Shown here: in pieces, positions 17,142 to 56,790 of the stretch
Layout of the letters: each line of letters opens with the position of its first letter
Numbering within the stretch: position 1 is the first letter of the stretch
Source: Candidatus Omnitrophota bacterium
GTDB taxonomy: Bacteria > Omnitrophota > Gorgyraeia > Gygaellales > Profunditerraquicolaceae
Direction: 5' to 3'
Length of the DNA stretch: 64,000 nucleotides
Assembly: GCA_963805065.1 (NCBI GenBank)
Contig: CAWDSS010000010.1
Coordinates: forward strand, 600,359 to 664,358
Translations under genes and position numbers: made by a program
The notes under the pieces: model-generated
What the model saw: the letters and a program-made list of their open reading frames with translations, nothing else
Database searches by the model: none
What the model was told of the DNA's origin: nothing

Positions 17142-17143
17142 TG

Positions 17144-17556: not shown

Positions 17557-17571
17557 ATTCACTATAATTAT

Positions 17572-20111: not shown

Positions 20112-20175
20112 GGGTCCCTCCGGGCTTTTCTTTTCTATATATTATATACTTATTTTATTATAATTTACACACAAA

Positions 20176-35100: not shown

Positions 35101-38100
35101 GAGCACGTCGGAATAGTTTGAGCTACCGACACCTCCCATGATATACAAATAGCCATTGTAGACTACTGAGCTGTGGTTATGTCTTGCCCCGCTTCCCACG
35201 CCGCTAAAAGAGCTGGTGGTAGACCAAATGCCTAAGGTGCCGTCGGCGTTCATAGAGGCGTAGAGCACGTCGGAATAGTTTGAGCTACCCCTACCTCCCA
35301 TAATATACAGATAACCATTGTAGGCTGCTGAGGTGTGGCCATACCTTGCGACTCCTGCCCCGCTAAAAGAGTTGGTGGTAGACCAGGTACTTATGGTGCC
35401 GACGGCGTTCATAGAGGCGTAGAGCACGTCGGAATAGTAGTTGCTGGCGCCGTTATACCCTCCCATGATATACAGATAACCATTGTAGGCTGCTGAGGAC
35501 GGGTACTCCCTTGTACTTACACCGTCTAAACCGCTATAATTACTGGTGGTAGACCAGGTGGTGAGGTTTCCTCCCGGCCCCAGCGGGGCGTAGAGCACGT
35601 CGGATAAATAGGCGGTGTTAATACCTCCCATGATATACATATAGCCATTGTAGACTGCTGAGCTGTGGTACGATCTTGCTCCGCCTCCTACGCCAGTAAA
35701 AGAGCTGGTGGTAGTCCAGTTAGCCAGGGTGCCGTCGGAGTTGATAGAGGCGTAGAGTGTGTCGGCGAGGAAGGTGCTGCTATAGCCTCCCATGATATAC
35801 ATATAGCCATTGTAAGCTGCTGAACTGTGGACATACCTTGCTCCGCCTCCTATGCCGGTAAAAGAACTGGTGGTAGTCCAGTTGTCGAGAGCGCCAGTGC
35901 CGTCGGATTTTATGTGTGCGTAGAGTGTGTCGGCGAGGGCGACGCCGCAATTACCTCCCATGATATACAGATAGCCATTGTAGGCTGCTGAGCTGTGCAT
36001 AGATCTTGCTCCGCCTCCTCCTGCTGCACTGTTAAAAGAGATGGTGGTAGTCCAAGTGCCAAGGGTACCAGTGGAGTTTATGGAGGCGTAGAGGACATCG
36101 GAGAGGGAGTTGCCGCTTTGATTGCTCCCTCCCATAATATACAGATAGCCATTGTAGGCTGCTGAGCTGTGGTACGATCTTGCTCCGCCTCCTCCTGCTG
36201 CACTGTTAAAAGAGATGGTGGTAGTCCAGTTAGCCAGGGTGCCGTCGGAGTTGATAAAGGCGTAGAGGACATCGGAGAAGCGGTTGGCGCTTTGATCCAT
36301 CCCTCCCATGATATACATATAGCCATTGTAGGCTGCTGAGCTGTGGTGCGATCTTGCTCCGCCTCCTCCTGCTGCACTGTTAAAAGAGATGGTGGTAGTC
36401 CAAGTGCCAAGGGTACCAGTGGAGTTTATGGAGGCGTAGAGCACGTCGGAGATGTAGTTGCCATTACAACCTCCCATAATATACATGTAGCCATTGTAGG
36501 CAACTGAGGCATGTCGTCCCCTTGCTCCGCCTCCTCCTGCTGCACTGCCAAAATAGCTGGTGGTAGTCCAGTTCCCCGTGCCGCCGGGAGTAAATGGGAC
36601 GTAGAGAGTGTCGGATAAGCTAGAGCCATTCCAACCTCCCATGATATACATATAGCCATTGTAGGCTGCTGAACAATGCATATTCCTTCCTCCGCTACCT
36701 GCATTGCCAAAATAGCTGGTAGCAGCCCAAGTACCCAGGGTGCCATTAGAATTGATAGGGGCATAGAGGACATCGGAGAAGTAAGCAGCGTCGAATGAAG
36801 CATTATTCCCCCCTACGATATACATATAGCCATTATAGGCTATTGAACAATGTATATTCCTTCCTCCGCTACCTGCATTGCCAAAATAGCTGGTGGTGGT
36901 CCAGGTAGCCAGGGTGCCGTCGGAGTTGATAGAGGCGTAGAGGACATCGGAGAAGCCAATACCGTTCCAAGTGTCAGTAGTACCTCCCATAATATACATA
37001 TAGCCATTGTAGGCAACTGAAGTATGGGCATCCCTTGCTCCGTTGCCTTTGCCAGTAAAAGAGCTGGTGGTGGTCCAGTTAGCCAGGGTGCCGTCGGAGT
37101 TGATAGAGGCGTAGAGTGTGTCGGAAAGATAGGTACCGTTAGTACCTCCCATAATATACATATAGCCATTATAGGCTGCTGAGGTATGTATGCCCCTTGC
37201 TCCGCTTCCTCCACTTACGCTGCCAAAAGAGCTGGTGGTAGTCCAGTTGTCGAGAGCGCCAGTGCCGTCGGATTTTATGTGTGCGTAGAGTGTGTCGGAG
37301 AGATAGGTACCGTTAACACCTCCCATGATATACAGATAACCATTGTAGGCTGCTGAGGTGTGGCCATACCTTCCTCCGCTTCCTCCTGCTGCACTGTTAA
37401 AAGAGATGGTGGTGGTCCAGTTAGCCAGGGAGCCGTCGGAGTTGATAGAGGCGTAGAGGACATCGGAGAAGTAGTTAGACCAGTTGCTAGTTCCTCCCAT
37501 AATATACAGATAGCCATTATAGGCTGCTGAGCTGTGGTAATACCTTACTCCGCTTCCGCCGCTTACACTACCAAAATTGCTTGTGATAGCCCAAGTGCCA
37601 AGAGCCCCTGTTGCCGGAGTTTTGCTTCTGATAATTGGTGCACCGGAGGTATTATAGGAAATCATTCCCTCATTATTCCCGCCTCCTCCAGTGGACTTAA
37701 AGTCTGCTACAGTGACGATGTGCACAGAGGGATCAATGCTTATAGGATAATTCAAGTTCCTATAATTCTTAACTTCCAAAATCAGGGACACCCTCGATTC
37801 CAAAGCAGGGACACCCTGCTTTCCAATCGGAAGGCTGTCCCCTTTGGGATTGGTAATCTTGTAGCTGGCTAAATCTTTTCTTTCTTTGCCGTTTGCCTCC
37901 CTTATTATAGGTAAGGGAATTGTATAGAGAAGCTCTGTTTTGGGAGCGTTCTTTCGCGCCAGCTCAATTAATTTGGCGCTTTTTTCATCACCTATCTGAA
38001 TATCACCCCAGAGATATTGGCTGGGCCCGTAAATTCCAATTGAGCCGTCCTGTTCCTGTTTTGCCACTAAATTATTATCCAGTTCCAATTGCCAGCTTAA

Positions 38101-38664
38101 ATTAACTTTTTTGTAATCGCGGCTGCTGGCAACCACAATATCTTCTCTTACGCCGTTATCCAGTGGAGTATAAATAATTGCCTGCCCCTGTCCGAAATTA
38201 TACACTACTCTTCCATTACGCAACTGGGAGCTGAATTTACAATTTTTGTATAAAGCCTTCATAACAAAACCAAACGCAGAATCATCGCGCTTAACCCAAA
38301 CCCTTCCTGCGTACTGAGCAAATGTGGCCTGGAATTTTACTTTAGCCAGCTCGTTGACGGACACAGATGCGCCTTGTTTTTGCGCAGGCGCGGTTTGCAA
38401 ATCGGCATTTTTGAAAACGTAGCTGTCTTTTTCTTTGGCCAGCGTGCCTTTAGTAGGCATGGGCAGGAAGCCTTCGGCAAAGCTTATCAGCTTTTCTCCC
38501 CGCACTTCTTTGGCTGTGGTTTTTAGTTCATTAAAGGTAGCATAGAATCCCAGCGCCAGGCCTGCTCCTAAAAATAAGATCGTCGCCAAACCCACTGTTA
38601 CAGTTTTTGCCAAATGCATTTTTCCTTGTTTGTCTTTTAGCATTTCTTTAATAGTGGTTTGCAT
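20176..38664 (-). CDS. Giant (6162-aa) membrane-anchored multi-repeat surface protein
   Basis: Uninterrupted 18,489-nt ORF with GAGGAG 7 nt upstream of the ATG. Contains an N-terminal signal-anchor helix (VTVGLATILFLGAGLALGFYA), 18 Kelch-like repeats, FN3-like units, DUF2341+LamG, a glycine-rich domain, dozens of ~85-90-aa Ser/Thr/Trp-rich Ig-like repeats and a coiled-coil C-terminus. Confidence 0.85.
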   Translation of the reverse strand: MQTTIKEMLKDKQGKMHLAKTVTVGLATILFLGAGLALGFYATFNELKTTAKEVRGEKLISFAEGFLPMPTKGTLAKEKDSYVFKNADLQTAPAQKQGASVSVNELAKVKFQATFAQYAGRVWVKRDDSAFGFVMKALYKNCKFSSQLRNGRVVYNFGQGQAIIYTPLDNGVREDIVVASSRDYKKVNLSWQLELDNNLVAKQEQDGSIGIYGPSQYLWGDIQIGDEKSAKLIELARKNAPKTELLYTIPLPIIREANGKERKDLASYKITNPKGDSLPIGKQGVPALESRVSLILEVKNYRNLNYPISIDPSVHIVTVADFKSTGGGGNNEGMISYNTSGAPIIRSKTPATGALGTWAITSNFGSVSGGSGVRYYHSSAAYNGYLYIMGGTSNWSNYFSDVLYASINSDGSLANWTTTISFNSAAGGSGGRYGHTSAAYNGYLYIMGGVNGTYLSDTLYAHIKSDGTGALDNWTTTSSFGSVSGGSGARGIHTSAAYNGYMYIMGGTNGTYLSDTLYASINSDGTLANWTTTSSFTGKGNGARDAHTSVAYNGYMYIMGGTTDTWNGIGFSDVLYASINSDGTLATWTTTSYFGNAGSGGRNIHCSIAYNGYMYIVGGNNASFDAAYFSDVLYAPINSNGTLGTWAATSYFGNAGSGGRNMHCSAAYNGYMYIMGGWNGSSLSDTLYVPFTPGGTGNWTTTSYFGSAAGGGGARGRHASVAYNGYMYIMGGCNGNYISDVLYASINSTGTLGTWTTTISFNSAAGGGGARSHHSSAAYNGYMYIMGGMDQSANRFSDVLYAFINSDGTLANWTTTISFNSAAGGGGARSYHSSAAYNGYLYIMGGSNQSGNSLSDVLYASINSTGTLGTWTTTISFNSAAGGGGARSMHSSAAYNGYLYIMGGNCGVALADTLYAHIKSDGTGALDNWTTTSSFTGIGGGARYVHSSAAYNGYMYIMGGYSSTFLADTLYASINSDGTLANWTTTSSFTGVGGGARSYHSSAVYNGYMYIMGGINTAYLSDVLYAPLGPGGNLTTWSTTSNYSGLDGVSTREYPSSAAYNGYLYIMGGYNGASNYYSDVLYASMNAVGTISTWSTTNSFSGAGVARYGHTSAAYNGYLYIMGGRGSSNYSDVLYASMNADGTLGIWSTTSSFSGVGSGARHNHSSVVYNGYLYIMGGVGSSNYSDVLYASMNADGTLGIWSTTSNFSAIGSEYLSSAAYNGYIYIVGVSTGYSSKVGYASINADGTLGTWSTTSSFANVGSGQRADQSTVAYNGYLYIIGGGLLSSYITFSDVLYAPINSNGTLGPWATTSYFGKVAIGSSRARHSSVAYNGYVYIMGGVWGMGIYATDVLYASINALPVSKGYYSKLYDRGLNTTWSSIAINWTTANTGAVGLQYAVADATTAAFGAVTTVNPITRGTAYTINQNGRALWTRLTLDDSNTMAINPDSANERDITDWTITYTVIPPSAPSACSISVPSTLPQPNKLTVNWSAVSTATGYRVERCGSSDGLSCTNSWTDYSWTYPSPGSGTVTSDDASVSYNTPYCYRVWSYLYDTGSSANWTSNTAQTASIEPLYSLANTPSAWAVSNISTTGMTITYVAETPANPANTNYAIENMGGGTGAGYYVQGNGTLGASAVWTTVSAGWGGASGKVVSGLNSNQQYIWSVAAQNGNGVSTNATSTTAKYTYAIPSASWNVTPTSSTWTNTATWVFTNNLPFGSGGVAYYKYVWDTNNTHTWAGDGNVWSSSTLTRIASASGQYYLHLQGYNGEGVPAVGTADLGPFQIGLVAPTLTNFTIYGNGAAPNGGSPTYVNGMASPGDAQLIKAVGVSSDNTSTSLQVQFSQDGTNWGVYSGSGTTNNKAADWTNWTTVNTSTSPTTWTISSAWYLEGSDAAKSIYVRARDAAENVGLYSPVSSSLSNAGGGTWKYNRAIPITNSSGATQTSYQVNVSLTTATMGSPYTNVNSNGSDIRFYNPSTMQELPYWIESWSSTGTSSFWVKVDSIPTSGATIYMYYGNPSATSSSSYANTANSSTSYSYNGDTGLKGEWLLNEGSGASTADTSGKSYTGTMQGSSYWTTAGKFGSAFQGNGSSNYVTISDQDAFSINTTGVLSTEFWVKTGSDVTNIYSVMGKGSTSNYEWGIYILNGYLDVYTYLFNGTWFKHEYASPVATNTWYHVAVVFTGCDSETQIYLNGVKSNILVADYGGGCTNGSAPLTLGAFAGYYWNGILDEVRIYSRALTQTDITAHYLGRQYLSSPPVVGSLGSEATAIGSKTITLDTTPPSVTNSVLTPTSGTYWNGTLNTNAITWSTSLVTDTNLTGTNWTLPINLYYSTDGSNWWTINTASALPNTTGSYTWSPAPGISSSTVQIKLRATDAAMNYSDWTVPTSGTFVIDSTAPSSPPGTPVASGVVTGSNSITWTWTAAVDSVAGIKDYFFCIGTTAGGTDQVSDLNVGNVTSYTWTGASNNNTYYAKVKARNNALIVGAYSGNSSPIACDTASPTITGFTIYGNGTAPTGGSATYVNGMASPGDNQIIKVAGVFDDNSRTSWTFVPTTLEVQFSEDSSTWGVYNGSTNSTTGGSTWAAGTWTAVTASSSNWTINSAWKLSNTDGTKTVYVRVMDGAGNISSRTSKTVTYTQIVQASSDGTADTPASWDGFTPGLSNTGTSNVAITGTGAGASVGLLLRSSGSPTTWTIPSTYTWTVPSSGVGSIQITANGAGGGGVGGTYGYGAAGGSSTGALAVTAGQTYYILVGGAGPATGTTGGYGGGGGGTSNGIYSGSGGGGMTWLGIASTFSTSTAIIVAGGGGGGGATQSQGGTGGGASGANGGSCGSGGGGSGGTSTGGGAGGTGTVTGSHGSAGIGGTAPGGTGNNAGGGGGGYYGGGSGAGSATGGGAGGGGSGYVWSSTSLTNWTTIAGAGAAAGSNGSLTITPFNYNSSGTFESATVNLGGEAQLWTISWTATIPSQCWTVSQATALKFQLATSNSATGPWIYYGPTSTTDYYTVSGTTINPVLTGKQYLRYKVYFATANTLYTPSLTNVTISIVSPLYGSITLDTASPIFNGNVIIAPASGGTYWNGTVGTNAITWSTTAITDATSGLNTTPIQIYYASDGNLGSPTWSIINTATNWSITNSGSYTWTPAPGISSANCKVKIKATDAAMNWTEQATSWTFVVDSTAPPAGSISFTIAGNPSSIYQYVSSASGPIYYNTGGTSGSFRIIATAQDPVSGIQKITFPGLAGFSTGNTAFDVTSSGTTWTANYTWTANSTQNGSVSFTVTNNAGLTTVSNNFSVIQDLTAPASFSLTSPTSSIWTTSTTPAFSWSASSDAGSGLGKYQLYVNGSVNKDNISATWTTGSTITANTINPGIYTWSVAAVDNVNNSQASTQTWTIKITNLGITAPAAGTSWTANTNSNITWSTAGFNEPLDILYSSNGTNWTVDNSTCWTIATNQSGTSYTWTITGDQIATATNSAQIKLQPTSITALNNVAWTTSAGFTVKGVRVTAPNTGSEMWVVGDTNRNITWTSTGLIPSTPIDLYYSSDGGTDWTTIDTQQANLGTYNWYSIPNDVSNNCLVMVSMHGATVSDTSNSAFKIVSPPSITIQSPNSGSSWRMGTNQTIAWTTDYAAANQITIWYTSDGITWTNIGTGTVANPQPTGVSDTQANSTSWTIPELSAATSNAQIKITYASRSEISPTTNWTAVSNTFAIPSSTISLNAVTSPQIAGDTWTITWTTVGTKAATANLYYATDFNPTTPTSATWTLIGQETNNGSYAWVIPTAYSSTSYGLKIEDSNNPSTVYDYTKNAFTVRYPTITLNPFPLSTEPEDSDGAITLVQNDARSITWTTERNLGNNIEIDCISGATVLWSVAGLTDNGSYVWTIPAAAVGTNRQIRIEDGSTPARTQGIQALSYVFKVLNNAKFRVDTPAAGVRIIGGKTYSSVTWTNIGDKANPTNSPAVTIKYVENGVAQTPNLANSSVNSGTYNWNVWLAPSTNAQIEIISNADNTITGTSSAFTVAANITTVLPASGTTWTLGTSNNQISWSTVGKITQVKVEYSPDGSTWTVPNASYTNWTVDNTDPNDSNITLLTTGTYDNNFTKSYYWTVPNNDAYISSGASQIRITGTRAPAINGSDPTNISVTLPITIAVPKISNVTLTQPLGADALYVGDTATISWTWVGNLSSGNSVKVSYTNNNGTTWTACSGAGALANTTASFNWTIPSDAVSINQTQIKVEDTDSSRSASLGQSSTAYTVKAQPSITITSPTGTPQWQVGKGYSITWTASAGVNDGHVQLRANTSDMGWTVLTTTAAQNGTYFWTVPQAALLWTNSTSAGLIEVSDASRAGSAVLGAVVSPDAAWTAIAPQITINSPSSSNNWAVATANLISWSTSGAVSQVNISYDLSYGAGTSWSTIATNLANTSNGSTSWTWTIPDDIGATSVKIVDASRSTVVTKTSGEFNLVGSITLAQPPNVVVNDSVNITWTSAGTFTPVNLQLSTDGSNWYDMNHTAQNSFTQVPNSGSSGSFSWTIPNAITSTAQVRIYDPNYPSVAVSTSNPFNIGTQPTLTITSPLTNPSWRVGSAGNTITWTGSANANDNINVEYSTNSGTNWTAIATGQPRGYPSAASFSWTVPQAALGAAATNASAQLRIRDMTRTQTQMTNTLLPQVTITQPAITVGNLSGYQVVTETPAITWSTAGGEGSATYAATIQYNSTSGGGSFTNVSGGASVTSNSNGTSTFTWTVPNDVGASQIKVFDSYRQSTTAATSNSFTICGMFNNVNLSGSAVTAGSALTINWTTTGRIDQANVELIYYRDGDVNLTSAQTISSADLSSWNIGNSSGSCVWTVPTTVDASYINTALRIRIIDTRVPTDSTSYKDTTTTFQINGSVSAPNPPALGASWTVGTGNVITWTTTGNITRVKLLYTTNASAGTPTWTVLNASANWSVTPNANAATNYTWTVPDNISSDCKIQVEDANDLTVSATSGTFNIKGNLNLISPVGGENWTIGTTHNITWTTTAGSASMATVKLEYSTDYGTSWTTVVESYDTLNDGIVGNTGSFSWTIPADYSIGNQQVCLVRVSQPNGLSNVSVSPSAFIIALPAIGILQPNGGEELTQYQTYNLGYSDQVNPTGGIKWTNTGTVGNVKIEWCPDYTTNQTWATIESNWPNNGAYYNFSPATVTATARIRISDAANPSVVAVSNANFSVLPPPMITSINHPTTTDAWIMGTTQTISWTKQGLVSDNLLLEYSYDNGVTYSQIYSGAMHGATSYNWAIPNSFAITSDSPARVRITDSGNSATPVEVSAQWTVKIPTVSMIRPNGGEVWAVGDLAPIAWTTQGSITANALQIAYSTNSGQNYAAPFANSLANSGTYTWTVPAIVQGINERLRVMDGSRPNSSGASVANFTVIAAPTIATFLTPPPNGVAYVVEDPMTINWTIRGLAIDHVAIDYWNDADQDGSLDGTETATVIAVNIPKGTSDTADAYSGSYTGSYTWTVPDNATATSTLKMRVRGYDSNGNLLATAVSPGWFRITGGFDFRDETVNSEEFLNSTDWKANTLHSITWYNKGAFPSLKLEYRTATDQSTLPLASWTTINSFTNVPNANNISGYAWTVPDPNFANLPAEPPADYYVQLRVSSTSDATIFAVSPAFTISYYTLTWRIRDDETMTLLTTGLGVDSSGGGSTYWNVIVGALDVATGSTTFTWRYPQGTYTTIWSKSGYYDTSDVDRIVSQDALVDVLMESTTPKEYRVQSSFSYNEDTNTLMIRLWLEKQGYLVVSDSINALGSATVAVSYGSSTLWTATAASADPTTGSYFIQVPNATTTGGLESGKTYFANCSISYGGTSGTRSTYTSGATFDISISEQLKQMTQMIQTATDAINTTTAAIANQTQSIQKTIQDSVVNAIQPQVSAITQQTSQILTATNTAIPNAITAAQNNITGTLNTEIKPQVQSGILNRDTAVKSGQAVIISYRTTTGLSPTIDVYDPKNMLKISKGRMIENGTSGVYDYTVTFLAGWGTGDFTVVCSETTKGTVDAQVITVYNTDIADVAGQVSAVLGSTTGITGLKSVADTLNSQFNLVDDALTKLSQGLTGKAEQAQGVLTQVETVYKQLDDISAQIDKMSGAGGINLKKLYEVAKEKKDDMVYLKNKTEELKAAMDLNSKMVENVAKKPVVQTWFEFK
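29880..30600 (-). other. Glycine-rich domain of the giant protein
   Basis: WTVPSSGVGSIQITANGAGGGG...GQTYYILVGGAG...AIIVAGGGGGGG...GGGSGYVWS. This resembles the bacterial/ALK-type 'glycine rich protein' domain; the DNA is runs of ccacc/gccgcc. Confidence 0.55.
31920..32900 (-). other. DUF2341-like plus LamG-like (concanavalin-A-type) module of the giant protein
   Basis: DIRFYN...LPYWIESW...FWVKVDSIP...IYMYYGN matches the DUF2341 pattern. It is followed by GEWLLNEGSG...WYHVAVVF...LDEVRIYSRALTQTDI, the Laminin_G_3 pattern. Confidence 0.65.
34590..37640 (-). other. Kelch-like repeat region of the giant protein (18 repeats)
   Basis: The motif (A/V)AYNGY(L/M)YI(M/V)GG recurs 18 times at ~47-55-aa spacing, each followed by SDVLYA.INSDGTL..W.TTS.F. 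This is consistent with three 6-bladed propellers (inference). Confidence 0.7.
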
Positions 38665-38680: not shown

Positions 38681-40099
38681 TTAGGAATTAGGTTCTGGGT
38701 TCTGGGTTTTAGGTTCTATAACTACTTTCGGTTCTACTTCCACGAACGGCCGAACCCTGACCCAGTCAAAATAAACGCTGCCTGCATTAACCAAGGCAGC
38801 ATCTGCTTTTAAACCGATATAGTCTTGCTCCAAACCGCCCACATCTAAAAATTGTATTTCTGCTTCTTTCTTGTAATTTTCACTGTATCTTTCAAATATA
38901 ATGCCGTCTTCATTTACGATTACCTTATATATATAATAAGTAAGAGGTGTTATGGGCTTACCGATATTTAGCTTGGCTACGCCATTAATGGCAATGGTAT
39001 GCTCTGCTCCGGGATAATTTGAAGAATAAACTATTACTTCGATGGGCAAAGTTTTTTGGTTTGTAACTTTTTCGCGCAGCACTGCCTGAATACTGGCATT
39101 GTCTTGCGCCTTGGCTTTAAATTCCAAAATCCCTTGTTTCATTGTAAAATCGCGCGAAAGAATCAGGCAATCCTTAAGCTGCAATTGGCCGTCTTTTAAA
39201 TTATATTCTTTTTTCAGTCCGGGCAGCACCTGCCATTTTGTCTCATCTAATTTCGCTTGGCTAAAATCATCGAAGAGCGGGAAGACTTTATTGGCATCTA
39301 AATATTCAGGGACAGTCCCCTGCGGGGGCAGCCCCTGTTTATCTCCGCAATAAAGATAAATGGTTATGCCTTCTTTGGGAATCTGGGGTATCTTGACCCA
39401 GCAATTATCATATTGGGTTCTAGGTTCTAGGTTCTTGGTGTTCGCATAATCCCCAGAACCTAGAACCGAAAACCTAGAACCTTCTTCTAAATAGTAGTAC
39501 AGAGGCGTCTGGCCATCTGCAGCAGTAAAATAAACATCCCTTCTATCCAAATTTATTTTCACGGGATAATTAAAGAGCTCCTCATTTGAACCCGCAATAA
39601 AAATCGGCTTATGATATTTAAATTTGTAGATGTCGGGGTTGCGGAAGATTTTTTTTACCCCTGATGAATCTGTAAACCCAAGGGTAATTTTTTTCAAGAT
39701 ACTGCCTTGGGGAATATTGACTTTAAAACACAAGGTATTTCCCGCAATAAATCCGTCAGTCAAAGGTTTTCCATTAATTATTTTTGTGTAAGAAGTGCCT
39801 GCGTTAGCGCTGACTTCCAGAGTAACCTCACCTTCAAAATCGTAAGAGGCAGAAATGGTTTTTATTGTGCCTGCAGTTTGAATAGGCGCAGATTCTATTG
39901 TGGTAGGGCCGGCTAAATTGTATTCAAAAACCATAGGGACAGTCCCCTTCGCTTCGCTCGGGGACAGTCCCTGAGCCTGCGCCTGAAGGGTGAGCCCCGC
40001 GCTTAACACTCCCACAATTAACCCAATAGTATATTTATTCATTTTCTCCTCTTCTTGTATGTCCATATAAAATATACTATTTATCATTGTTAATATCAA
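38681..40099 (-). CDS. Secreted DUF2341/LamG-like protein (paralogous to a module of the giant protein)
   Basis: Signal peptide (IGLIVGVLSAGLTLQAQA). DUF2341-like PLYYYLEE...CWVKIPQIPKEGITIYLYCGD, then a concanavalin-like FDDFSQAKLDETKWQVL... domain. Its stop lies 16 nt before the giant gene start. It contains in-frame heptamer palindrome 39413-39482 and has a heptamer-encoded C-terminus. Confidence 0.6.
   Translation of the reverse strand: MILTMINSIFYMDIQEEEKMNKYTIGLIVGVLSAGLTLQAQAQGLSPSEAKGTVPMVFEYNLAGPTTIESAPIQTAGTIKTISASYDFEGEVTLEVSANAGTSYTKIINGKPLTDGFIAGNTLCFKVNIPQGSILKKITLGFTDSSGVKKIFRNPDIYKFKYHKPIFIAGSNEELFNYPVKINLDRRDVYFTAADGQTPLYYYLEEGSRFSVLGSGDYANTKNLEPRTQYDNCWVKIPQIPKEGITIYLYCGDKQGLPPQGTVPEYLDANKVFPLFDDFSQAKLDETKWQVLPGLKKEYNLKDGQLQLKDCLILSRDFTMKQGILEFKAKAQDNASIQAVLREKVTNQKTLPIEVIVYSSNYPGAEHTIAINGVAKLNIGKPITPLTYYIYKVIVNEDGIIFERYSENYKKEAEIQFLDVGGLEQDYIGLKADAALVNAGSVYFDWVRVRPFVEVEPKVVIEPKTQNPEPNS
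38689..38718. repeat. Heptamer run at the 3' coding end of the DUF2341/LamG gene
   Basis: taggttctgggttctgggttttaggttcta, read as EPKTQNPEPNS-stop. Confidence 0.85.
39413..39482. repeat. Heptamer palindrome inside the DUF2341/LamG gene (in-frame)
   Basis: ttgggttctaggttctaggttcttgg-tgttcgcataatcc-ccagaacctagaaccgaaaacctagaacc, read as SRFSVLGSGDYANTKNLEPRTQ. Confidence 0.9.
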
Positions 40100-40154: not shown

Positions 40155-40233
40155 TTGGGTTCTGGGTTCTGGGTTCTGGGCTGTAAATATTGACCGGGTT
40201 TTAGCTAGAACCGAAAACCTAGAACCTAGAACC
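40155..40233. repeat. Heptamer palindrome upstream of the DUF2341/giant-gene operon
   Basis: ttgggttctgggttctgggttctggg-23 nt-ctagaaccgaaaacctagaacctagaacc. Confidence 0.9.
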
Positions 40234-40311: not shown

Positions 40312-40755
40312 CTATTCCAATAGAATCTCTAAATCTGCCTTATCCTGTTTACGCCCTGATACCTTTTTGGTCCTTATTAACTCGTTTTTCCCAATAAAAA
40401 ACACCTTTTCTTTCCCGTATTTAGCGACTTTTTTATTCTTCCAAATTTCCTTAAAACTGGCGCCCTCAACAGAGGTTATCAAATCAACCCTTAAGGGTTC
40501 GTAGCCAAGCTGTATAATCTTTCCTTCCAAAGCAAAATCTTCCTTTGCCAATTTGAGGTTTTTAAAGCCGAATTCGGTTAGCGACTTTATGATTTTGTGG
40601 CTATTATCTTTTTTGGCTTCTACTAAGATATCGATATCTTTTGTATACCTGGGCTTGGCGTATAGAGCCAGCGCATATGCGCCAACAATGCAATATTTAA
40701 CCTTGTTCTTATTGAATAATTTTAATAATTCTTCGTAATCCTTTTCTACTTTCAT
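40312..40755 (-). CDS. Nucleotidyltransferase-fold-like small protein
   Basis: 147 aa. YCIVGAYALALYAKPRYTKDIDILV resembles minimal nucleotidyltransferase/DUF-type proteins often paired with a small upstream partner. Family not verified. Confidence 0.4.
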   Translation of the reverse strand: MKVEKDYEELLKLFNKNKVKYCIVGAYALALYAKPRYTKDIDILVEAKKDNSHKIIKSLTEFGFKNLKLAKEDFALEGKIIQLGYEPLRVDLITSVEGASFKEIWKNKKVAKYGKEKVFFIGKNELIRTKKVSGRKQDKADLEILLE

Positions 40756-40912
40756 TTTTATGCCCGCCTTTTATTTTAAGATATATCTCCCGTAAAAACT
40801 GCATTGTTTCTAAGCGCCCCTGCCGCGACATTCCACGGTAATAAACAGTATCAAAATCTTGGGCTTCTTTAAATGATTGGAATTTTTTTATCCAGATTTT
40901 CTTCATTCTCAT
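40709..40912 (-). CDS. Small hypothetical protein, possible partner (antitoxin-like) of the downstream nucleotidyltransferase-like gene
   Basis: 67-aa ORF overlapping the next gene by 47 nt and the RR stop by 4 nt. The pattern FKEAQDFDTVYYRGMSRQGRLETMQFLRE recalls small proteins found upstream of NTase-like genes. Weak. Confidence 0.3.
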   Translation of the reverse strand: MRMKKIWIKKFQSFKEAQDFDTVYYRGMSRQGRLETMQFLREIYLKIKGGHKNESRKGLRRIIKIIQ

Positions 40913-41562
40913 TCTCCCGCGGCATCCACGATTTTGTGCTCTAAAGCATACTTTATCAGGTCGCTGGTCTTATGCAGGTTAAGCTTCTTTAGGATGCTGT
41001 TTTTATAGTTTTCCACAGTCCTGCGGCTTAAAAACAGGGTTTCTGCGATTTCCTTGGCAGTCTTTCCCTCAGCTACCAGCCGCAAAACATCCTGCTCCCG
41101 CTCATTCAAAATTTCACCCTTGGACACCTCTTTTTGCTTGGGCTCCTGCATTATTTCTGTTAAATAATTTGAGATGGAAGCTCCAAAATAAGAATTGCCG
41201 GAAATTACGCGCGACAATGCAGGAATCAACTCTTCCGCTAAATTATCCTTATTTAAATATCCGTTTACTCCGCGGCGCATTGCCTTTAAAACATAGGCTC
41301 CTAATTTATGCACTGTAATCATAATAATTTTTGTTTTATTTGAGGCCCGTTTAACCCGCTCAATAATATCCAGGCCGCTAACCTTGGGCATGGAAATGTC
41401 CAGAAGCAAAATATCCGGCTTCATTTCGCGCACCAATTCCAGCGCCTGCTCTCCGTTTGATGCCTCTGCGCAAACCTGATATTGCGCATGGGGCTTCAGT
41501 ACGCTCTTTATTCCCTCTCTTATGATATCGTGGTCGTCAGCTATTAGAATAGTTATAGGCAT
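40909..41562 (-). CDS. NarL/LuxR-family response regulator
   Basis: REC domain (LIADDHDIIREG, ILLLDISMPKVSG) plus a C-terminal LuxR HTH (LNEREQDVLRLVAEGKTAKEIAETLFLSRRTVENYKNSILKKL). Confidence 0.9.
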   Translation of the reverse strand: MPITILIADDHDIIREGIKSVLKPHAQYQVCAEASNGEQALELVREMKPDILLLDISMPKVSGLDIIERVKRASNKTKIIMITVHKLGAYVLKAMRRGVNGYLNKDNLAEELIPALSRVISGNSYFGASISNYLTEIMQEPKQKEVSKGEILNEREQDVLRLVAEGKTAKEIAETLFLSRRTVENYKNSILKKLNLHKTSDLIKYALEHKIVDAAGE

Positions 41563-41563
41563 A

Positions 41564-41617
41564 TTGGGTTCTAGGTGTTCGACTCTCTATTATTACTTCT
41601 GGGTTCTGGGTTCTTGG
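41564..41617. repeat. Heptamer units (GGTTCT orientation) between the RR start and the four-helix-bundle gene end
   Basis: ttgggttctaggtgttc ... cttctgggttctgggttcttgg. Confidence 0.85.
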
Positions 41618-41805
41618 TAATCATTTACATGTTGCCTGGTTTTTCCTTCTGCAATGTTTGAAGAAATAGAAACAGCGCATCTTCTCATTTGATTAATCAA
41701 GCCGTACATTTCCTCTTTAGGAAAATCTTTGGTAAGTATATAAACTTTTTTAACGAACTCTATGGATTTTTTCCAAACTTCCAAGTCTTTATAGCTTTTT
41801 ATCAC
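41593..41805 (-). CDS. Four-helix-bundle protein (23S rRNA intervening-sequence protein family), truncated
   Basis: SYKDLEVWKKSIEFVKKVYILTKDFPKEEMYGLINQMRRCAVSISSNIAEG matches the N-terminal half of the family. The ORF ends in heptamer-encoded YQEPRTQK, so about half the usual length is missing. GTG start. Confidence 0.55.
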   Translation of the reverse strand: MIKSYKDLEVWKKSIEFVKKVYILTKDFPKEEMYGLINQMRRCAVSISSNIAEGKTRQHVNDYQEPRTQK

Positions 41806-41817
41806 TTCTAATTATCC

Positions 41818-41849
41818 CCCAGAACCTAGAACCTAAAACCTAGAACCTA
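41818..41849. repeat. Heptamer units (AGAACC orientation) between the HK stop and the four-helix-bundle gene start
   Basis: cccagaacctagaacctaaaacctagaaccta; includes the HK stop codon (TAG). Confidence 0.85.
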
Positions 41850-43205
41850 AATAGGCAAATCAACTGTGATTCTGGTTCCTTTACCTAGGGCTGAATCAAT
41901 ATGCATTACTCCGTCCAACAACTCAATCCGCTCTTTTAAGCTCACCAACCCCAGCCTTAATTTATCTTCCTGCCGCCTGCGGGGAATTTTTTTTACCATT
42001 GCTTCATAATCAAACCCTAAGCCGTCATCCTGATAAAAAAATTCCAGCGAATTCTTTTTTTTAGTCAACCGGATTTCCACTGCTTTGGCCTGCGCGTGTT
42101 TTAGCATATTAGTCAGGAGTTCCTGCGCAATGCGGTATAAAACCAAACTATATTCAGGGGGCAGCTGCAATTCCTCTTTGGGTTTTTCATAAATAAAATT
42201 TATATTACTCAATTGCTTATATTCCATAACCAGGGCTTCCAGGCTCTCGGCTAATCCCACCTCATCCAAATCCGGGGGCCTTAAGAGAAATGCGATGTTG
42301 TGGCCTTTTTCAATTAATCCGGAAACTATTTTTTTAATCTGGACTAATTTTTCTTTTAGGTCCTGCGGCAGGTTCATAAGGCCCTGCTCTAATAATCCCA
42401 GGTAAATTTTTAAAGCGCTTAGGTCCTGGCCCATCTGGTCGTGTACCGCCGTAGAAAGGTTTTTGCGCTCTGTTTCTTCCACATTAATCATCTGGTTAAA
42501 CAGGTCTTCGCGGTTTAAACGTTCACTGCCAAGGCGCCTGTAAACCGACTGGGCAATAAGGATTCCAATGATTGTGGCACTAAGCAAAATTAAACACACA
42601 AACAAAATTGCTGCTTTCCTGTCATGGCTAGTTTTCTGCATCTGCCTTTCTACTTCAGAAATATTCGCCTTACCCATGGTGTTGTCCAGGAATTCATCTA
42701 TTTTATACAGCTTGTTTTCAAAGGCCATGAGCAGGCTGTTAATTACAGCCTCTTCCGCCGCGGGCTGCGCTGAATTTGAGAGGTCTATAATTTGTTTACC
42801 CAGGGCACTTAGCTCATTAAAAGAATTGCCTACTTCTCTAGCCCATTCTTTTTGCTGCGCAAGATACGCAAAGTCTTCGTAAACTTTTAATTGCTGACGG
42901 AAACGTTCCCCGGCATCAAGGACATCATTCAAATTAACTGCCATGGGAAGGGCGCCCAGGTATTTCGATATTTTCCAAAACACGTAATTACGTATGCCTA
43001 TGGAATAAATCGTATTGTTTATGCGCATTTCCAAAACCGCTTTTTCCAATTTTAGATTGCGCTTGCCCAGGTCTTCGATTCTATGGCTTAGGCCGCGGAT
43101 TTCCAGGATTCCCGTTATGCCTATTGCAATAATTAAAATAATTAAGACAGTAAATGCTATCTGCAGCTTCCTGTCTTTATGGTCTAACTTTCTGGAGTCA
43201 ATCAT
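41847..43205 (-). CDS. Sensor histidine kinase (HisKA_3/NarX-LiaS type)
   Basis: Two TM segments flank a periplasmic/HAMP-like region. H-box AVHDQMGQDLSALKIYL; HATPase motifs ELLTNMLKHA, DDGLGF, GLVSLKERIELLDG. Confidence 0.85.
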   Translation of the reverse strand: MIDSRKLDHKDRKLQIAFTVLIILIIAIGITGILEIRGLSHRIEDLGKRNLKLEKAVLEMRINNTIYSIGIRNYVFWKISKYLGALPMAVNLNDVLDAGERFRQQLKVYEDFAYLAQQKEWAREVGNSFNELSALGKQIIDLSNSAQPAAEEAVINSLLMAFENKLYKIDEFLDNTMGKANISEVERQMQKTSHDRKAAILFVCLILLSATIIGILIAQSVYRRLGSERLNREDLFNQMINVEETERKNLSTAVHDQMGQDLSALKIYLGLLEQGLMNLPQDLKEKLVQIKKIVSGLIEKGHNIAFLLRPPDLDEVGLAESLEALVMEYKQLSNINFIYEKPKEELQLPPEYSLVLYRIAQELLTNMLKHAQAKAVEIRLTKKKNSLEFFYQDDGLGFDYEAMVKKIPRRRQEDKLRLGLVSLKERIELLDGVMHIDSALGKGTRITVDLPI

Positions 43206-43206
43206 T

Positions 43207-43317
43207 TGGGTTCTAGGCTATGGTTTAGACTTCTGGGTTCTAGGTTCTCGGCTATGGCTTAGACTTCTGGGTTCTAGGTTCTCGTGCTAGAACCTAGAAC
43301 CTAAAACCTAGAACCTA
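43207..43317. repeat. Heptamer/27-mer structured array filling the secretin-HK spacer
   Basis: Two ggctatgg(y)ttagacttctgggttctaggttctcg modules plus a terminal palindrome arm. The array spans from the secretin stop codon to the HK start codon. Confidence 0.9.
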
Positions 43318-45867
43318 TATTTTGTTTTTATTCAGCTCCTCTATGTGCCTTAAGGCTTCCTTCGTCCAGAGGTCAGTCGGCTCGCCCAATTGCACGCGCT
43401 TCTTCCAGTATTCAATTGCCTTAGGCTTGTCGCCCTTTGCCTCATTTAACAAAGCCAGGTTAGAATAAGCTGCACGGCACTTTGGATCGAGGTCCAGGGT
43501 TTTTAAATACATCTTCTCTGCTTCATCAGCCAGGCCTGCGGTTTCCAGGATAATACCTAATTGGTTATATGCGCCGGCAAAAGTAGGGTCTGCGCCGGTA
43601 GCTTTTTGAAAATAATCTTTTGCCTCATTGAGGTTACCTGACTTTTGTAACTCCAGGCCCTTTTGATACAACTCTGCAGCTTTGAACCTGTCGGGAATTT
43701 TAACTTCTAAGGCCTTCTTTTCCTCTTTTATCTTTTTTCCGGCTTCTTCCTGTTCTTGCTTTCTCTGTTCTTCTTGTTTCCTTATCTCTTCTTGCTTCTT
43801 GGCTTCTGCTGCTTTTTTCGCCTCTTGGGCTTTTTTAATTTCTTCTTGCTGCCTGTTGGCTTCCTCGGTTTTCTTGGCTTCTTCCTGTTTTTTAAGCTCC
43901 TGGGCTTTTCTTATTTTTTCCTGCCTCTTAGCCTCTGCTTGTTTTCTTTCTTCCTCTGCCTGCTTTTTAATTCCTTCCTGCTGCGCCTTTTTTTGTGCTT
44001 CCTGCTCTTTCTTTTCTTGCTCCTTTTTGGCATTCTCGGCTTTTACGGCTGTTTCTAATTTTATGGCATCGTCTATTTTTTTAAATTCCGCGGCTTGCCT
44101 TTCTTGCTCTAATTTTTCCGATTCAGCCCGAATCAATTCTTCCTGCATTTTTCTTGCGGGAAACTCTAACGTATCGGCCATTTCCCATTCTCTGGCAATT
44201 TTTCTTTTAACGGTTTCAGGCATTATGTCTTTAGGGATTATTTTTTCCGGCTCATATCCGGGCAGCGTTGTATCGCCTTTTATTAAATGAGGCGTAACAA
44301 AAACAATCAGTTCTGTCCTTTGTTTGCTTTTGTCGCGGTTGCCGAAAAACGAACCTATTACCGGCAACCTGGATAGCCAGGGTAACCCCGTAATCGTATC
44401 CGTGTTTTGCTCCTGGATAAGGCCGGCAATCATAATCATTGTGCCGTCTTTAACCTTAACCACGGTCTCTGCCTGCGAGGTCGAGACAATGGGTATACGG
44501 CTGCCTAAAGAAGTTGTGATAGTTTCTTTTACGGAGCTCACCTCTGGTTTTATCTTCATGCTGATGTAACCATCTTTATTGATAGTGGGAATAATTTTTA
44601 ATTTCACGCCCACATCCACGAATTCAATTGACTCGGAGGTTACCGTAGTTGACTGCGCCTGGCTCAATGTCTGGGTCACATATGCCTCGCGCGTGCCCAC
44701 CATAATGCTTGCCTCTTCGTTATTAACCGCGGCAATCCTGGGCTGGGAGATAATTTTGGTGTCACCGTAGCTTTCCAAAAGCTTTATAACTACATTAAAT
44801 CTATTAGCGGGTACGCTGCCCACTGATATTTGCTGATACGTAGCCAAAGCCGTTGCCACCGGGAAATTTCCCAGGAAGTCTAATCCGGCAAGCCTGCTTT
44901 GACTAAACAGCTGTTCCCAATTAATGCCCCTGCTAAAATCATTACTCAGGGTTACTTCGGCAATTTCAGTTTCTAAAAACACTTCCCGCGTTTCTTCGTC
45001 AATCTCTTTTACCAGGCGGCTTATTTTTTCCATCTTCCTGGGCAGGTCAGATACAATGGCCTTGCCGTTACGCTCATCCACAATGACCTGGCCTGTCCCG
45101 GGAGTTATTGCCGCATTCAGTTGCGTTTTTGCATCAGCCGGCTTAATATAATTAAGATTGAAAACTGTGGTTTGTAACGGCTGGTCGAGTTCTAAAGCAG
45201 TTTTTTCCATGATCTCAATTTTTTCCGGTATGTCGATTAAAATTATTGTGCCGGATGCCTCATCAGCAATAATTTTTCCTATATCTGATTTCAGCTGGGA
45301 AAGCGCATTGAATACGTTTGCAGGCTTTGCGTAAGAAAGCTTGATAACCTTCATCCTCCTTTGTTCTATATAATCTTTGCCGTAGCGGACTTTATACTCC
45401 GCAGCGCTCATAATGTAATATATACCGCCTTGTTTCTCGATGGCGTAGCCTTGGGTGAGCACAATTATATCCAATACGTCTTTTAAGGTAACATTATTAA
45501 GGAATACGGTTATGCGGCCGGTTACATCTTTGCTGGGGACAATGGTTCTTCCTGTCTTTAAAGCAAGTATGCGCAGCAATTCTACTACTTCAATATTTTT
45601 TAAATCCAGGGAAATCTTCTCTTCTTTTTGCAGGGAAGGGGCCCCCTCTGCCAAAGCGCTAATACCAAAGCACAAATGACAAAATAAAATCAAAGCACAA
45701 ATGACAAAACTCAAAGAAAAGGGGACGTTTCTATTTTTCTGCTGATTAGGAGACGTTAAAAATAGAAACGTCCCCTTTTCTTTGGTTGTTGAATTACTTA
45801 GATTAAAGGATTTATTTAGACGTTGGGATTTTGTCATTTGGATTTTTAACTTCAATTTTTTCCTCAC
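43315..45867 (-). CDS. Secretin (GspD/PilQ/MshL family) fused to a Lys/Glu-rich coiled region and C-terminal TPR repeats
   Basis: Secretin C-domain (SQPRIAAVNNEEASIMVGT..., ITGLPWLSRLPVIGSFFG, ELIVFVTPHLI). A Lys/Glu-rich low-complexity stretch lies at roughly nt 43725-44145, followed by TPR repeats (AGAYNQLGIILE..., AAYSNLALLNE...). The start is uncertain because the N-terminal ~50 codons are repeat-derived. Confidence 0.8.
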   Translation of the reverse strand: MRKKLKLKIQMTKSQRLNKSFNLSNSTTKEKGTFLFLTSPNQQKNRNVPFSLSFVICALILFCHLCFGISALAEGAPSLQKEEKISLDLKNIEVVELLRILALKTGRTIVPSKDVTGRITVFLNNVTLKDVLDIIVLTQGYAIEKQGGIYYIMSAAEYKVRYGKDYIEQRRMKVIKLSYAKPANVFNALSQLKSDIGKIIADEASGTIILIDIPEKIEIMEKTALELDQPLQTTVFNLNYIKPADAKTQLNAAITPGTGQVIVDERNGKAIVSDLPRKMEKISRLVKEIDEETREVFLETEIAEVTLSNDFSRGINWEQLFSQSRLAGLDFLGNFPVATALATYQQISVGSVPANRFNVVIKLLESYGDTKIISQPRIAAVNNEEASIMVGTREAYVTQTLSQAQSTTVTSESIEFVDVGVKLKIIPTINKDGYISMKIKPEVSSVKETITTSLGSRIPIVSTSQAETVVKVKDGTMIMIAGLIQEQNTDTITGLPWLSRLPVIGSFFGNRDKSKQRTELIVFVTPHLIKGDTTLPGYEPEKIIPKDIMPETVKRKIAREWEMADTLEFPARKMQEELIRAESEKLEQERQAAEFKKIDDAIKLETAVKAENAKKEQEKKEQEAQKKAQQEGIKKQAEEERKQAEAKRQEKIRKAQELKKQEEAKKTEEANRQQEEIKKAQEAKKAAEAKKQEEIRKQEEQRKQEQEEAGKKIKEEKKALEVKIPDRFKAAELYQKGLELQKSGNLNEAKDYFQKATGADPTFAGAYNQLGIILETAGLADEAEKMYLKTLDLDPKCRAAYSNLALLNEAKGDKPKAIEYWKKRVQLGEPTDLWTKEALRHIEELNKNKI
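45660..45840. mobile_element. Composite MITE-like element (outer inverted repeats plus REP doublet core)
   Basis: The left end has ccaaagcacaaatgacaaa duplicated; the core is the REP doublet. The right flank ctttggttgttgaattacttagattaaaggatttatttagacgttgggattttgtcatttg is ~90% identical to 53113-53175. Confidence 0.65.
45717..45779. repeat. REP doublet
   Basis: Same arms; lies inside the tracked 5' extension of the secretin-TPR ORF. Confidence 0.9.
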
Positions 45868-56043: not shown

Positions 56044-56790
56044 CTACCAGATTATTTCATCCGCTAAAAATACAGGCCCCTCTTTACAGACCCGCTTAAA
56101 ACCATTCTTTGTATCTACGACACAGCCTAAACATGCGCCTATCCCGCAAGCCATGTGTTCTTCCAAAGAAATTTGCGCGGGGATTTTCAGGTTTTTAGAG
56201 ATTATGGCTATTTCTTTTAACATGGGTTTGGGACCGCAGGCGTAGATGGTCGATGGTCGCAAAACCTTCTTTAATAAATCCGTTACCCTGCCTTTGAAAC
56301 CCCTGGAACCGTCATCAGTAGCAATTTTGATTTCGCAGCCTAAATTTTTAAATTCCCTCTCGCATAATATTTGGTTTTTTGTTTTTGCGCCTATTAAAAC
56401 CAAGGGCTTATGTTTAGCCAGCTTTTTTGCTAAGAATACCAAGGGCGCAACGCCCATGCCTCCTGCTACGAGAACCGATAACCGAGAACCGAGAACCGAG
56501 AACCCATTGCCCAACGGCCCGATTATATCCGCATATTCTCCTTGTTTTCTTTGCGAAAATAACTCCGAGCCTTTGCCTACAACTTCATAAATAATCTCTA
56601 TGGATTTGCCTTTTGCTGCATGTATGCTAAACGGCCGCCTAAGAAGCGGGTCAAACCCTTCACCTACTTTTATATTCACAAATTGGCCAGCAGTTGCTGA
56701 CTTTGCAATATTAGCGGCTTGCAGGCAGCAATGAAAATAATTATTGCTGATTTTTGCGTTGTAAATTATTTTAGCTTTTGTTTGAAACAT
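56044..56790 (-). CDS. pyrK: Dihydroorotate dehydrogenase electron-transfer subunit
   Basis: RRPFSI (FAD binding), GPLGNGF, AGGMGVAPL, and the C-terminal 2Fe-2S motif MACGIGACLGCVV. The loop after GNGF is encoded by heptamer array 56470-56505. Confidence 0.88.
   Translation of the reverse strand: MFQTKAKIIYNAKISNNYFHCCLQAANIAKSATAGQFVNIKVGEGFDPLLRRPFSIHAAKGKSIEIIYEVVGKGSELFSQRKQGEYADIIGPLGNGFSVLGSRLSVLVAGGMGVAPLVFLAKKLAKHKPLVLIGAKTKNQILCEREFKNLGCEIKIATDDGSRGFKGRVTDLLKKVLRPSTIYACGPKPMLKEIAIISKNLKIPAQISLEEHMACGIGACLGCVVDTKNGFKRVCKEGPVFLADEIIW
56470..56505. repeat. Heptamer run (GAGAACC)x5 inside pyrK
   Basis: gagaaccgataaccgagaaccgagaaccgagaaccc, read as FSVLGSRLSVL between GPLGNG and VAGGMG. 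Confidence 0.85.

Follow-up and report, generated by a model that had tools for sequence, protein, structure and literature searches.

A truncated four-helix-bundle gene between inverted heptamer arrays in an Omnitrophota two-component operon: a probable decaying copy of a mobile cassette resembling 23S rRNA intervening sequences

Intervening sequences (IVSs) of 23S rRNA with S23p open reading frames (ORFs) have been known since the early 1990s, and they have long been suspected of originating as mobile elements (PMC4990558). In Coxiella burnetii the S23p ORF lies in the loop of a 28 bp terminal stem, three to four tandem GACAGAT heptamers (the number varies between strains) directly precede its start codon, and RNase III cleaves at the first repeat (PMC4990558). 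The Coxiella ORF is decaying, with a 176 bp deletion in one strain, and the same study refers back to a long-standing suggestion that the IVS is mobile and that its ORF encodes a mobility factor (PMC4990558). Here, we describe a related arrangement in 64 000 nt of a Candidatus Omnitrophota bacterium (assembly GCA_963805065.1, contig CAWDSS010000010.1; the whole stretch is referred to as the window), in which a truncated four-helix-bundle (4HB) gene of the S23p/PF05635 family lies between inverted heptamer arrays inside a two-component operon. The 70-residue ORF is probably a decaying copy of a mobile IVS-type cassette, the arms of which are predicted to form a long hairpin when the operon is transcribed.

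The locus shares with the IVSs of C. burnetii and Leptospira a PF05635 protein, an ORF enclosed by a long stem of terminal inverted repeats (predicted for the cassette) and the tendency of that ORF to decay. Tandem heptamers in the 5′ stem are common to it and the Coxiella IVS; here there are four, ahead of the Shine–Dalgarno sequence and start codon. The cassette lies between protein-coding genes of an operon, whereas IVSs occupy helix 25 or 45 of 23S rRNA, and RNase III excision, known for the IVS, is putative for the cassette. Presence and absence at orthologous mRNA junctions are documented below; we found no such record in the IVS literature. Heptameric simple sequence repeats (SSRs), namely GGGAATC in Xanthomonas and GGGGA(T/C)T and STRR in Nostoc/Calothrix, are mostly intergenic, often form convergent inverted pairs (70–75 pairs per Xanthomonas genome) and are conserved in position in related species (Rehm et al., 2015; PMC4692102). 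They are regarded as G-quadruplex-forming, their role is given as unknown and no 4HB gene is mentioned (PMC4692102). The Xanthomonas GGGAATC repeats nevertheless bracket a 4HB gene of the XCC0516 type between accB and accC; unlike the units of Rehm et al., the GGTTCTN unit of the window is not prone to form G-quadruplexes. The 4HB fold is also homologous to that of Avd of diversity-generating retroelements, which forms a pentameric, basic, nucleic-acid-binding ring. Our literature search returned no paper that connects flanking heptamer arrays or heptamer SSR families with 4HB genes as a class, and an earlier description may exist.

The features of the locus, from upstream to downstream, are as follows.

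41847–43205, minus strand: histidine kinase of 452 residues with a 4HB_MCP_1 N-terminal sensor domain, HisKA_3 and HATPase_c; upstream gene of the operon
41821–41849, minus strand: 5′ arm of four heptamers, sense TAGGTTCT AGGTTTT AGGTTCT AGGTTCT (four AGAACCN on the plus strand)
41806–41820, minus strand: Shine–Dalgarno-like GGGGGA and spacer before the GTG start, from reading of the sequence
41593–41805, minus strand: 4HB remnant ORF of 70 residues with a PF05635 match; GTG start at 41803–41805
41617–41805, minus strand: retained N-terminal 63 codons (helices 1 and 2) of the 4HB gene, from profile matches and comparison with relatives
41597–41618, minus strand: inner 3′ arm, sense CCAAGAACC CAGAACC CAGAAG (about 2.5–3 GGTTCTN units on the plus strand)
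41593–41616, minus strand: out-of-family tail QEPRTQK and TAA stop, encoded by the 3′ array; deletion junction
41564–41581, minus strand: outer 3′ arm, sense CGAACACC TAGAACC CAA (GGTTCTA and a degenerate GGTGTTC unit)
40909–41562, minus strand: NarL-type response regulator of 217 residues with Response_reg and GerE; downstream gene

The 70-residue ORF was matched by PF05635 (E = 3e-23, 82.5 bits, cut-off 33.8) over profile positions 1–59 of 106 only, by TIGR02436 ('four helix bundle protein'; 70.2 bits, cut-off 24) and by NCBIfam NF008911 over positions 1–63 of 118. Homology to the family stops after codon 63 (..RQHVNDY), where intact relatives go on ..NEYIQFLYIALGSCAELE... With a complete four-helix domain comprising about 105–125 residues, the ORF is a fragment and not an intact family member. 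The 4HB proteins of intact relatives have 114–128 residues, and about 54–57 codons (160–170 nt) are missing in comparison with those of 117–120 residues. The truncation is real and not an assembly artefact, because an assembly from another sequencing run (L001; Logan ERR10755942) is 99.986% identical over 7009 nt and has no difference across the cassette. Helices 3 and 4 are lost and the protein can therefore no longer form a four-helix bundle. The intact 4HB protein at the orthologous locus L086 matches PDB entry 2GSC (XCC0516) with E = 2.7e-23; PDB entries 2GSC and 2RLD each contain five chains (a homopentameric toroid), and assembly of a two-helix fragment into such a ring is unlikely. In a tblastn search of the window, 4HB sequence was found nowhere other than at 41593–41805. 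No rRNA was found in the window, and Rfam scans (the whole window at gathering thresholds; 41450–41950 at E ≤ 1) matched only four tRNAs elsewhere.

The kinase stop codon TAG (41847–41849) is the first triplet of the 5′ arm, and the outer 3′ arm, separated from the inner one by a 14 nt A/T-rich spacer, stops one base short of the regulator ATG (41560–41562). The inner 3′ arm has its counterpart in the first 3′ array of the intact L086 cassette, which is placed directly after the 4HB stop codon; because of this match, an internal deletion of about 165 nt from codon 64 on is the simplest history. With at most one mismatch allowed, 53 occurrences of the pattern GGTTCTNGGTTCT were counted in the window, where 0.25 would be expected by chance, and the 29 nt 5′ arm is identical to the arm of a gene-less palindrome at 43289–43317. 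Cassette ends read TAGG...CCTA in several copies; since TA belongs to the repeat unit itself, a TA target-site duplication is indistinguishable. An earlier note, made from the letters alone, had placed a 70-residue 4HB remnant between a HisKA_3 kinase and a NarL-type regulator, bracketed by AGAACC- and GGTTCT-oriented heptamers and with its frame ending inside the downstream array. The domain matches and coordinates bear out the placement, the bracketing holds (41821–41849 versus 41597–41618 and 41564–41581) and the tail QEPRTQK with its stop consists of translated heptamers.

The nearest homologues of the 4HB fragment pointed to the orthologous operons of L002 and L004, and a metagenome scan with the regulator gave 43 operons in which it is at least 52% identical. 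Most of the kinase–regulator junctions are empty, with only 2–20 nt between stop and start in L087, L088, L089, L090, L093, L094, L095, L096, L098, L100, L103 and L107. An intact cassette encoding 117 residues is present in L086 (regulator 91% and kinase 76% identical), with GGTTCTA arrays and a two-part 3′ arm. The L002 copy has a frameshift near codon 88 and arrays GGTGTTA GGTTCTA ... TAGAACC TAGA, and that of L004 an in-frame TAA and arrays CGGTTTT CGGTTCT ... AAAACCG ATAACCG. Upstream of the 4HB gene, Shine–Dalgarno sequences are GGAGGGG in L002 and TAGGGG in L086. Two junctions are occupied by different 4HB types, one 30% identical with GTGTAAG arrays (L101) and one 40% identical, with a nonsense codon and GAGTCAG arrays (L119), and in L124 about 20 codons of the 4HB N-terminus are left between nested arrays. 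In total, five of seven copies at this junction are disrupted. Arrays devoid of an ORF occupy the junction in L105, L110, L112, L114, L115 and L118, and a 72 nt spacer with another repeat (GGGGACG) and no heptamers that in L085 (regulator 92%). In a rough neighbour-joining tree of about 213 regulator residues, carriers of the same cassette type appear at three separate positions, interspersed with lineages whose site is empty. Gene and arrays form one unit that is present or absent at orthologous sites, and the window copy lacks helices 3 and 4. The earlier note had proposed a search for an empty site in orthologous operons, which most relatives provide; it had also counted orthologous full-length 4HB genes lacking arrays as contrary evidence, and those genes that are near full length do carry them. 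As a separate observation, the ORF-less junction of L118 (1830–1984) contains a near-perfect 28 nt inverted repeat (AAGGGGTCAAGTCTTATCTTTGTAACTT … AAGTTACAAAGATAAGACTTGACCCCTT) around TTTGTAAC repeats.

The same cassette type occurs at unrelated junctions of other Omnitrophota genomes, with 66–82% identity over the N-terminal 61 residues and with GGTT-core heptamers. One such site follows the gene for a giant protein and precedes that for a 234-residue protein: the cassette is intact in L005, cut to 87 residues and without its 3′ arm in L003, and absent from the window (20112–20175), where an ordinary GGAGGG ribosome-binding site is found. The C-terminus of the giant ORF of the window (…VQTWFEFK followed by the stop) is orthologous to that of the gene preceding the type-A cassette in L005 and L003. 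Further sites of the same type lie 5′ of atpC (L006), 5′ of a leuC-like gene (L007) and in a second kinase–regulator pair (L009). Presence/absence polymorphism is seen at the kinase–regulator and giant-protein junctions and for the gene-less element at 43207–43317. The identity of the 4HB proteins is unrelated to host distance: that of the window is 80% identical to L086 (regulators 91%) and 82% identical to L002 (regulators 66%). Between copies, synonymous sites are saturated (proportion of synonymous differences pS 0.66–1.0) and the nonsynonymous proportion pN is 0.09–0.19; the 4HB protein is therefore under strong purifying selection. Conservation across copies, decay in place and empty or re-occupied sites form the pattern expected of a selfish element, the protein of which would serve the element's own spread. 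The possibility raised in the earlier note that the cassette is itself mobile is supported by these comparisons, specifically by the empty orthologous sites, the scattered carriers and the same type at other junctions. The only viral relative found, on one viral contig, has 46% identity and is bracketed by GGGAGTA/TACTCCC. A general decay of the family, considered when a protein search returned only 59–108-residue sequences, was dropped: equally identical intact relatives were found and that list is probably selection-biased.

For a wider survey, 86 PF05635 genes from 80 genome loci were used (Bacteroidota, Ignavibacteria, Melainabacteria, Patescibacteria, Cloacimonadota, Omnitrophota and other groups). 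Each gene was checked for an inverted repeat between the 90 nt preceding the start and the 90 nt following the stop, with a score of at least 12 counted as strong. Complementary flanking arrays were found for 43 of the 86 4HB genes and for eight of 492 control ORFs, so that the search for other array-bracketed 4HB genes suggested in the earlier note succeeded. The eight positive controls comprise one divergent 4HB gene, two or three ORFs with the arrays of a local cassette, and otherwise A/T-rich low-complexity or operator-like sequences. Arrays have a period of 7 nt or, less commonly, 8 nt. Units vary between lineages, but the two arms match each other, with an identity of 0.88 in the best register versus 0.66 when shifted by one unit. 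Both neighbours are co-oriented for 65 of 75 genes, with median gaps of 70 and 60 nt that correspond to the arrays, and none of the 86 copies lies inside rRNA. An Omnitrophota metagenome-assembled genome (L006) has three 4HB cassettes (4138–4509, 6001–6357 and 10222–10599) within 12 kb of an ATP-synthase cluster, each with its own heptamer unit; the unit therefore belongs to the cassette lineage and not to the host. Two cassettes were also observed in a leu gene cluster (L007), one of them with A-rich heptamers (CAAAAAT).

In Xanthomonas (L165–L167, 2424–2873) the XCC0516-type 4HB gene interrupts the conserved accB–accC operon, with GGGAATC GGGAGTG GAGAATC GGGAATC on its 5′ side and CATTCCC CATTCCC GACTCCC TATTCCC on its 3′ side up to the accC start, which follows the last TATTCCC without a Shine–Dalgarno sequence. 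The family is defined by the crystal structure of Xanthomonas XCC0516 (PDB entry 2GSC), the orthologue of which lies in accB–accC. In Flavobacterium columnare, a gene annotated as 'four helix bundle protein' is situated between gmk and nadD (gaps of 33–88 nt) and has been listed in a predicted phage region (PMC5524665). Judged from its layout, it would fit a junction cassette rather than a phage region.

The cassette is taken to be a 4HB gene that brings a ribosome-binding site of its own and is enclosed by two inverted arrays, each comprising about four heptamers. An ancestor would have gained it exactly between the kinase stop and the regulator start, where it would be transcribed with both genes. 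Co-transcription is suggested by the co-orientation, by arms that directly adjoin the stop and start codons and by the lack of a promoter or terminator signal: in a scan of 40800–43400, promoter-like and terminator-like sites were no commoner than in shuffles. The deletion of about 165 nt in this lineage would then have removed helices 3 and 4 and fused codon 63 to the first 3′ array. In both the minimum free energy (MFE) and the centroid structures from RNAfold, 41821–41849 is predicted to pair with 41597–41618 and 41564–41581 with the ORF in the loop; the inner 3′ arm would pair with the inner half of the 5′ arm and the outer 3′ arm with its outer part, giving a two-part hairpin. Pairing of the 5′ and 3′ arms is likewise predicted in the MFE and centroid folds of L002 and L009, and at least 15 long-range pairs are predicted for 50 of 86 4HB genes versus 35 of 232 random small control ORFs. 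By analogy with the 23S IVSs, the hairpin would most likely be cut by RNase III; cleavage would split the kinase and regulator messages, uncouple the cistrons (separated by 2–7 nt in empty operons) and make the insertion tolerable. We infer both this processing and a role of the 4HB protein in the spread of the cassette. The genes 3′ of the arrays (the regulator, the kinase and Xanthomonas accC) have no Shine–Dalgarno sequence (in the case of the regulator, none between its ATG and the 3′ arm), whereas that of the 4HB gene is strong; the missing downstream signals might be explained by processing to a near-leaderless message.

Several observations weigh against this reading of the ORF as a decaying mobile cassette with an RNA hairpin. 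In a strand test, transitions among the arm mismatches that give G·U on the sense strand were counted against those that give G·U on the antisense strand (A·C on the sense strand). No excess of sense G·U was found in 43 cassettes (24 versus 32 A·C, with 93 transversions) or in the arms of the window (5 versus 12), where the spacer position is A·C on the sense strand; these counts therefore lend no support to selection for pairing of the sense RNA. The similarity of the arms may have another basis, such as protein sites in both orientations, DNA hairpins or conversion between the arms. The regulator tree would also accommodate repeated precise loss in place of repeated gain, given its rough neighbour-joining construction on about 213 residues. 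Frameshifts in metagenome contigs can be sequencing errors, which is less likely for nonsense codons and large deletions. Purifying selection on the 4HB protein could equally reflect a benefit to the host, and no relaxation of selection is visible in the remnant; the deletion may be recent, or else the remaining two helices may still have some role. The only ORF of intact cassettes is the 4HB gene, no transposase or recombinase being recognised in the full-length form, and no transposase, integrase or reverse transcriptase lies beside any copy that was examined.

About nine tight palindromes of the form (GGTTCTN)3–4, a 5–29 nt loop and (AGAACCN)3–4 are present in the window, together with three lone arrays. 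These arrays fit the definition of heptamer SSRs, with at least three tandem 7 nt units, positions mainly at gene junctions and frequent convergent inverted pairs. Only the 4HB cassette has a gene in its loop, and no other pair of arms in the window is separated by about 200 nt. The gene-less palindromes listed here were located by repeat scan, that at 39412–39484 also by alignment.

43207–43317, unstranded: composite palindrome that fills the entire spacer between a secretin/TPR gene and the kinase
40156–40233, unstranded: heptamer palindrome with a 29 nt loop
39412–39484, unstranded: palindrome in frame within the DUF2341 ORF at 38681–40099 (minus strand)
17476–17557, unstranded: composite palindrome just 5′ of an atpC-like gene
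17143–17228, unstranded: composite palindrome between atpC-like and atpE-like genes
16676–16795, unstranded: composite palindrome between atpE-like and atpF-like genes
6464–6529, unstranded: palindrome in the leader-peptide coding part of a pseudopilin gene
5986–6051, unstranded: palindrome in the leader-peptide coding part of a second pseudopilin gene

The nine gene-less palindromes look like derivatives of the same element, which would have lost its gene. In the loop of the palindrome at 39412–39484 (also delimited as 39416–39481), the two cassette edges are preserved, GGTTCTGGGGATTATG and, opposite it, CGAACACC..AGAACCCAATATG, with an alignment score of 40.5 (shuffles 5.7 ± 2.4); this palindrome is probably a cassette minus its ORF. 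The element at 43207–43317 is absent from L002, in which the flanking genes overlap, and another hairpin takes its place in L086. The position equivalent to 17476–17557 in L006, 5′ of atpC, holds an intact cassette of the same type as that of the window.

Correia/nemis elements of Neisseria and other palindromes resembling miniature inverted-repeat transposable elements are short inverted repeats at gene junctions that are co-transcribed, form hairpins cleaved by RNase III and are polymorphic between strains. The gene-less GGTTCT palindromes are similar, whereas the arms of Correia elements are unique terminal inverted repeats and not tandem heptamers; we know of no 'full' Correia form that carries a 4HB gene. 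Rickettsia palindromic elements are palindromic repeats situated in frame inside protein-coding genes. They compare with the in-frame inserts of the window in the DUF2341 ORF, two pseudopilin leaders and atpC-like and pyrK-like ORFs, but belong to another sequence family and another host, and to our knowledge no gene accompanies them.

Further observations were made on the in-frame repeats. The insert in the DUF2341 protein reads …LEEGSRFSVLGSGDYANTKNLEPRTQYDNCWVKIP… and recalls the Rickettsia elements. In the two pseudopilin leaders (5986–6051 and 6464–6529) the palindromes lie just before the processing motif (…LPRTENPEPRTQ|RSFTLLELL and …PRTQNLEPKTQ|RSFTLIELM); the prepilin leader would then span about 25–40 repeat-encoded residues, or else the true start is non-canonical. 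The lone array at 17298–17318 consists of exactly three heptamers (21 nt, …SSEPRTQ…) in frame in an ORF resembling ATP synthase epsilon, and the atpC orthologue of L006 is shorter at this site. Five units make up the lone array at 56469–56504 (…FSVLGSRLSVL…), which is in frame in a PyrK-like ORF. At 47323–47360, TTGGTTN/TCGGTTT heptamers encode the hydrophobic core of the signal peptide (MKIKILLLVIGCWFSVFGY) of the ORF at 45812–47377; this array shares a GGTT core with the type-A arms of other Omnitrophota.

The earlier note had also suggested that the heptamer palindromes act as insertion or recombination sites able to capture small genes; they would then be resident host elements at gene junctions, one loop of which trapped a 4HB gene here. 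In its favour, tight palindromes far outnumber the single 4HB gene of the window, and ORF-less arrays occur at some orthologous junctions, where the order of events is not directly readable. Such capture is nevertheless unlikely, and the suggestion did not survive the comparison: the loops hold only 4HB genes (genuine flanking arrays occur in only about three of the 492 controls, apart from one that proved to be a 4HB gene), the unit varies between the cassettes of one genome and tracks the 4HB type, as in the 12 kb locus of L006, and unrelated phyla show the same design with unrelated units. The remnants at 39412–39484 and in L124 point to the loss of an ORF rather than its gain. It is also quite improbable that the 4HB protein is a functional third partner of the two-component system, for example a modulator of the kinase or regulator, with the arrays acting as a regulatory attenuator. 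Strong purifying selection on the coding sequence and the presence of the gene in at least four orthologous kinase–regulator operons and in the unrelated pair of L009 would agree with such a role. Most orthologous operons do without the gene, however, five of the seven copies at the junction are disrupted, the same type is found at metabolic, ATP-synthase and other junctions, and the junction is occupied in about 35% of orthologues, close to the number of elements per junction across the window.

That the arrays might be ordinary local SSRs arising from replication slippage, with their position around the 4HB gene meaningless, was considered because heptamers are known to be over-represented in bacterial genomes, heptamer SSRs of unknown role are abundant in several bacteria (PMC4692102) and heptamer copy number varies between Coxiella strains (PMC4990558). 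Slippage offers no source of matched opposite arrays flanking one class of genes (43 of 86 versus eight of 492), of arms that agree better in the best register than one unit off (0.88 versus 0.66) or of whole elements that are present or absent at orthologous sites; it is very unlikely, and the association statistics already largely refute it. Descent from the accessory gene of a degraded diversity-generating retroelement is hardly credible. PF05635 proteins are homologous to Avd (PMC10053308) and weak matches to bAvd and NF033474 were obtained, but the NF033474 score is 21 bits (37 for the intact relative), far below the cut-off of 80. The scanned neighbours (kinase, regulator, DUF6036 nucleotidyltransferase and DUF2341) include no reverse transcriptase, no template/variable repeat pair was seen, although none was specifically sought, and such partners are also missing beside intact relatives at this site. 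Integron-like capture was likewise considered and set aside alongside this origin.

The locus itself would be an ordinary decaying copy of a mobile IVS-type cassette, and the wider interest lies in junction cassettes across phyla and in their link to heptamer repeats. Together with its relatives it joins IVSs to heptamer repeats, the ORF in a heptamer hairpin being common at operon junctions of many phyla, and the empty, intact, decayed and gene-less states provide comparative evidence for mobility and a plausible origin of heptamer palindrome families. A broader proposal, which we make tentatively and hold to be rather doubtful, is that 4HB (S23p) cassettes are a widespread, previously unrecognised class of mobile elements without a conventional transposase, the pentameric protein of which recognises cognate arrays and promotes spread. 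If so, the targets would be transcribed junctions, including operon spacers, rRNA helices (the classical IVSs) and even coding sequences; the pentamer would recognise about four to five units per arm; and decay of the gene would leave heptamer palindromes and SSRs genome-wide, such as the cyanobacterial STRR and Xanthomonas GGGAATC families. For annotation, the locus and its relatives imply that genes labelled 'four helix bundle protein' and short 4HB fragments in operons are best read as element insertions and not as operon components. Tractable systems are Xanthomonas accB–4HB–accC, for which a crystal structure of the protein exists, and several cultured Flavobacterium and Kaistella strains.

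Other repeats and genes of the window were recorded in passing. A second repeat family (19275–19408, 15889–15956 and 16820–16912) is an inverted repeat of AAAAGGGGACGTTTCTATTTTT with AATGACA/TTGTCAT heptamers on its flanks, and the AAAAGGGGACGTTTCTATTTTT family also fills the kinase–regulator junction in L085 (700–770) and the secretin–kinase junction in L086 (about 1110–1165). A-rich heptamer arrays (sense NCAAAAC / GTAAAAG) lie at the 3′ ends of genes (7080–7135, 7663–7697, 12040–12110 and 58704–58757) in a single orientation, with no partner arm seen, and two of them end in an identical CAAAACTAAGGTTCATTC. Downstream of the regulator, at 40312–40912 on the minus strand, a 67-residue ORF and an overlapping 147-residue DUF6036/AbiEii-like nucleotidyltransferase ORF resemble a toxin–antitoxin-type pair. 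The giant ORF (20176–38664, minus strand, 6162 residues) contains about 17 tandem repeats of 174 nt (58 residues) at 34646–37557.

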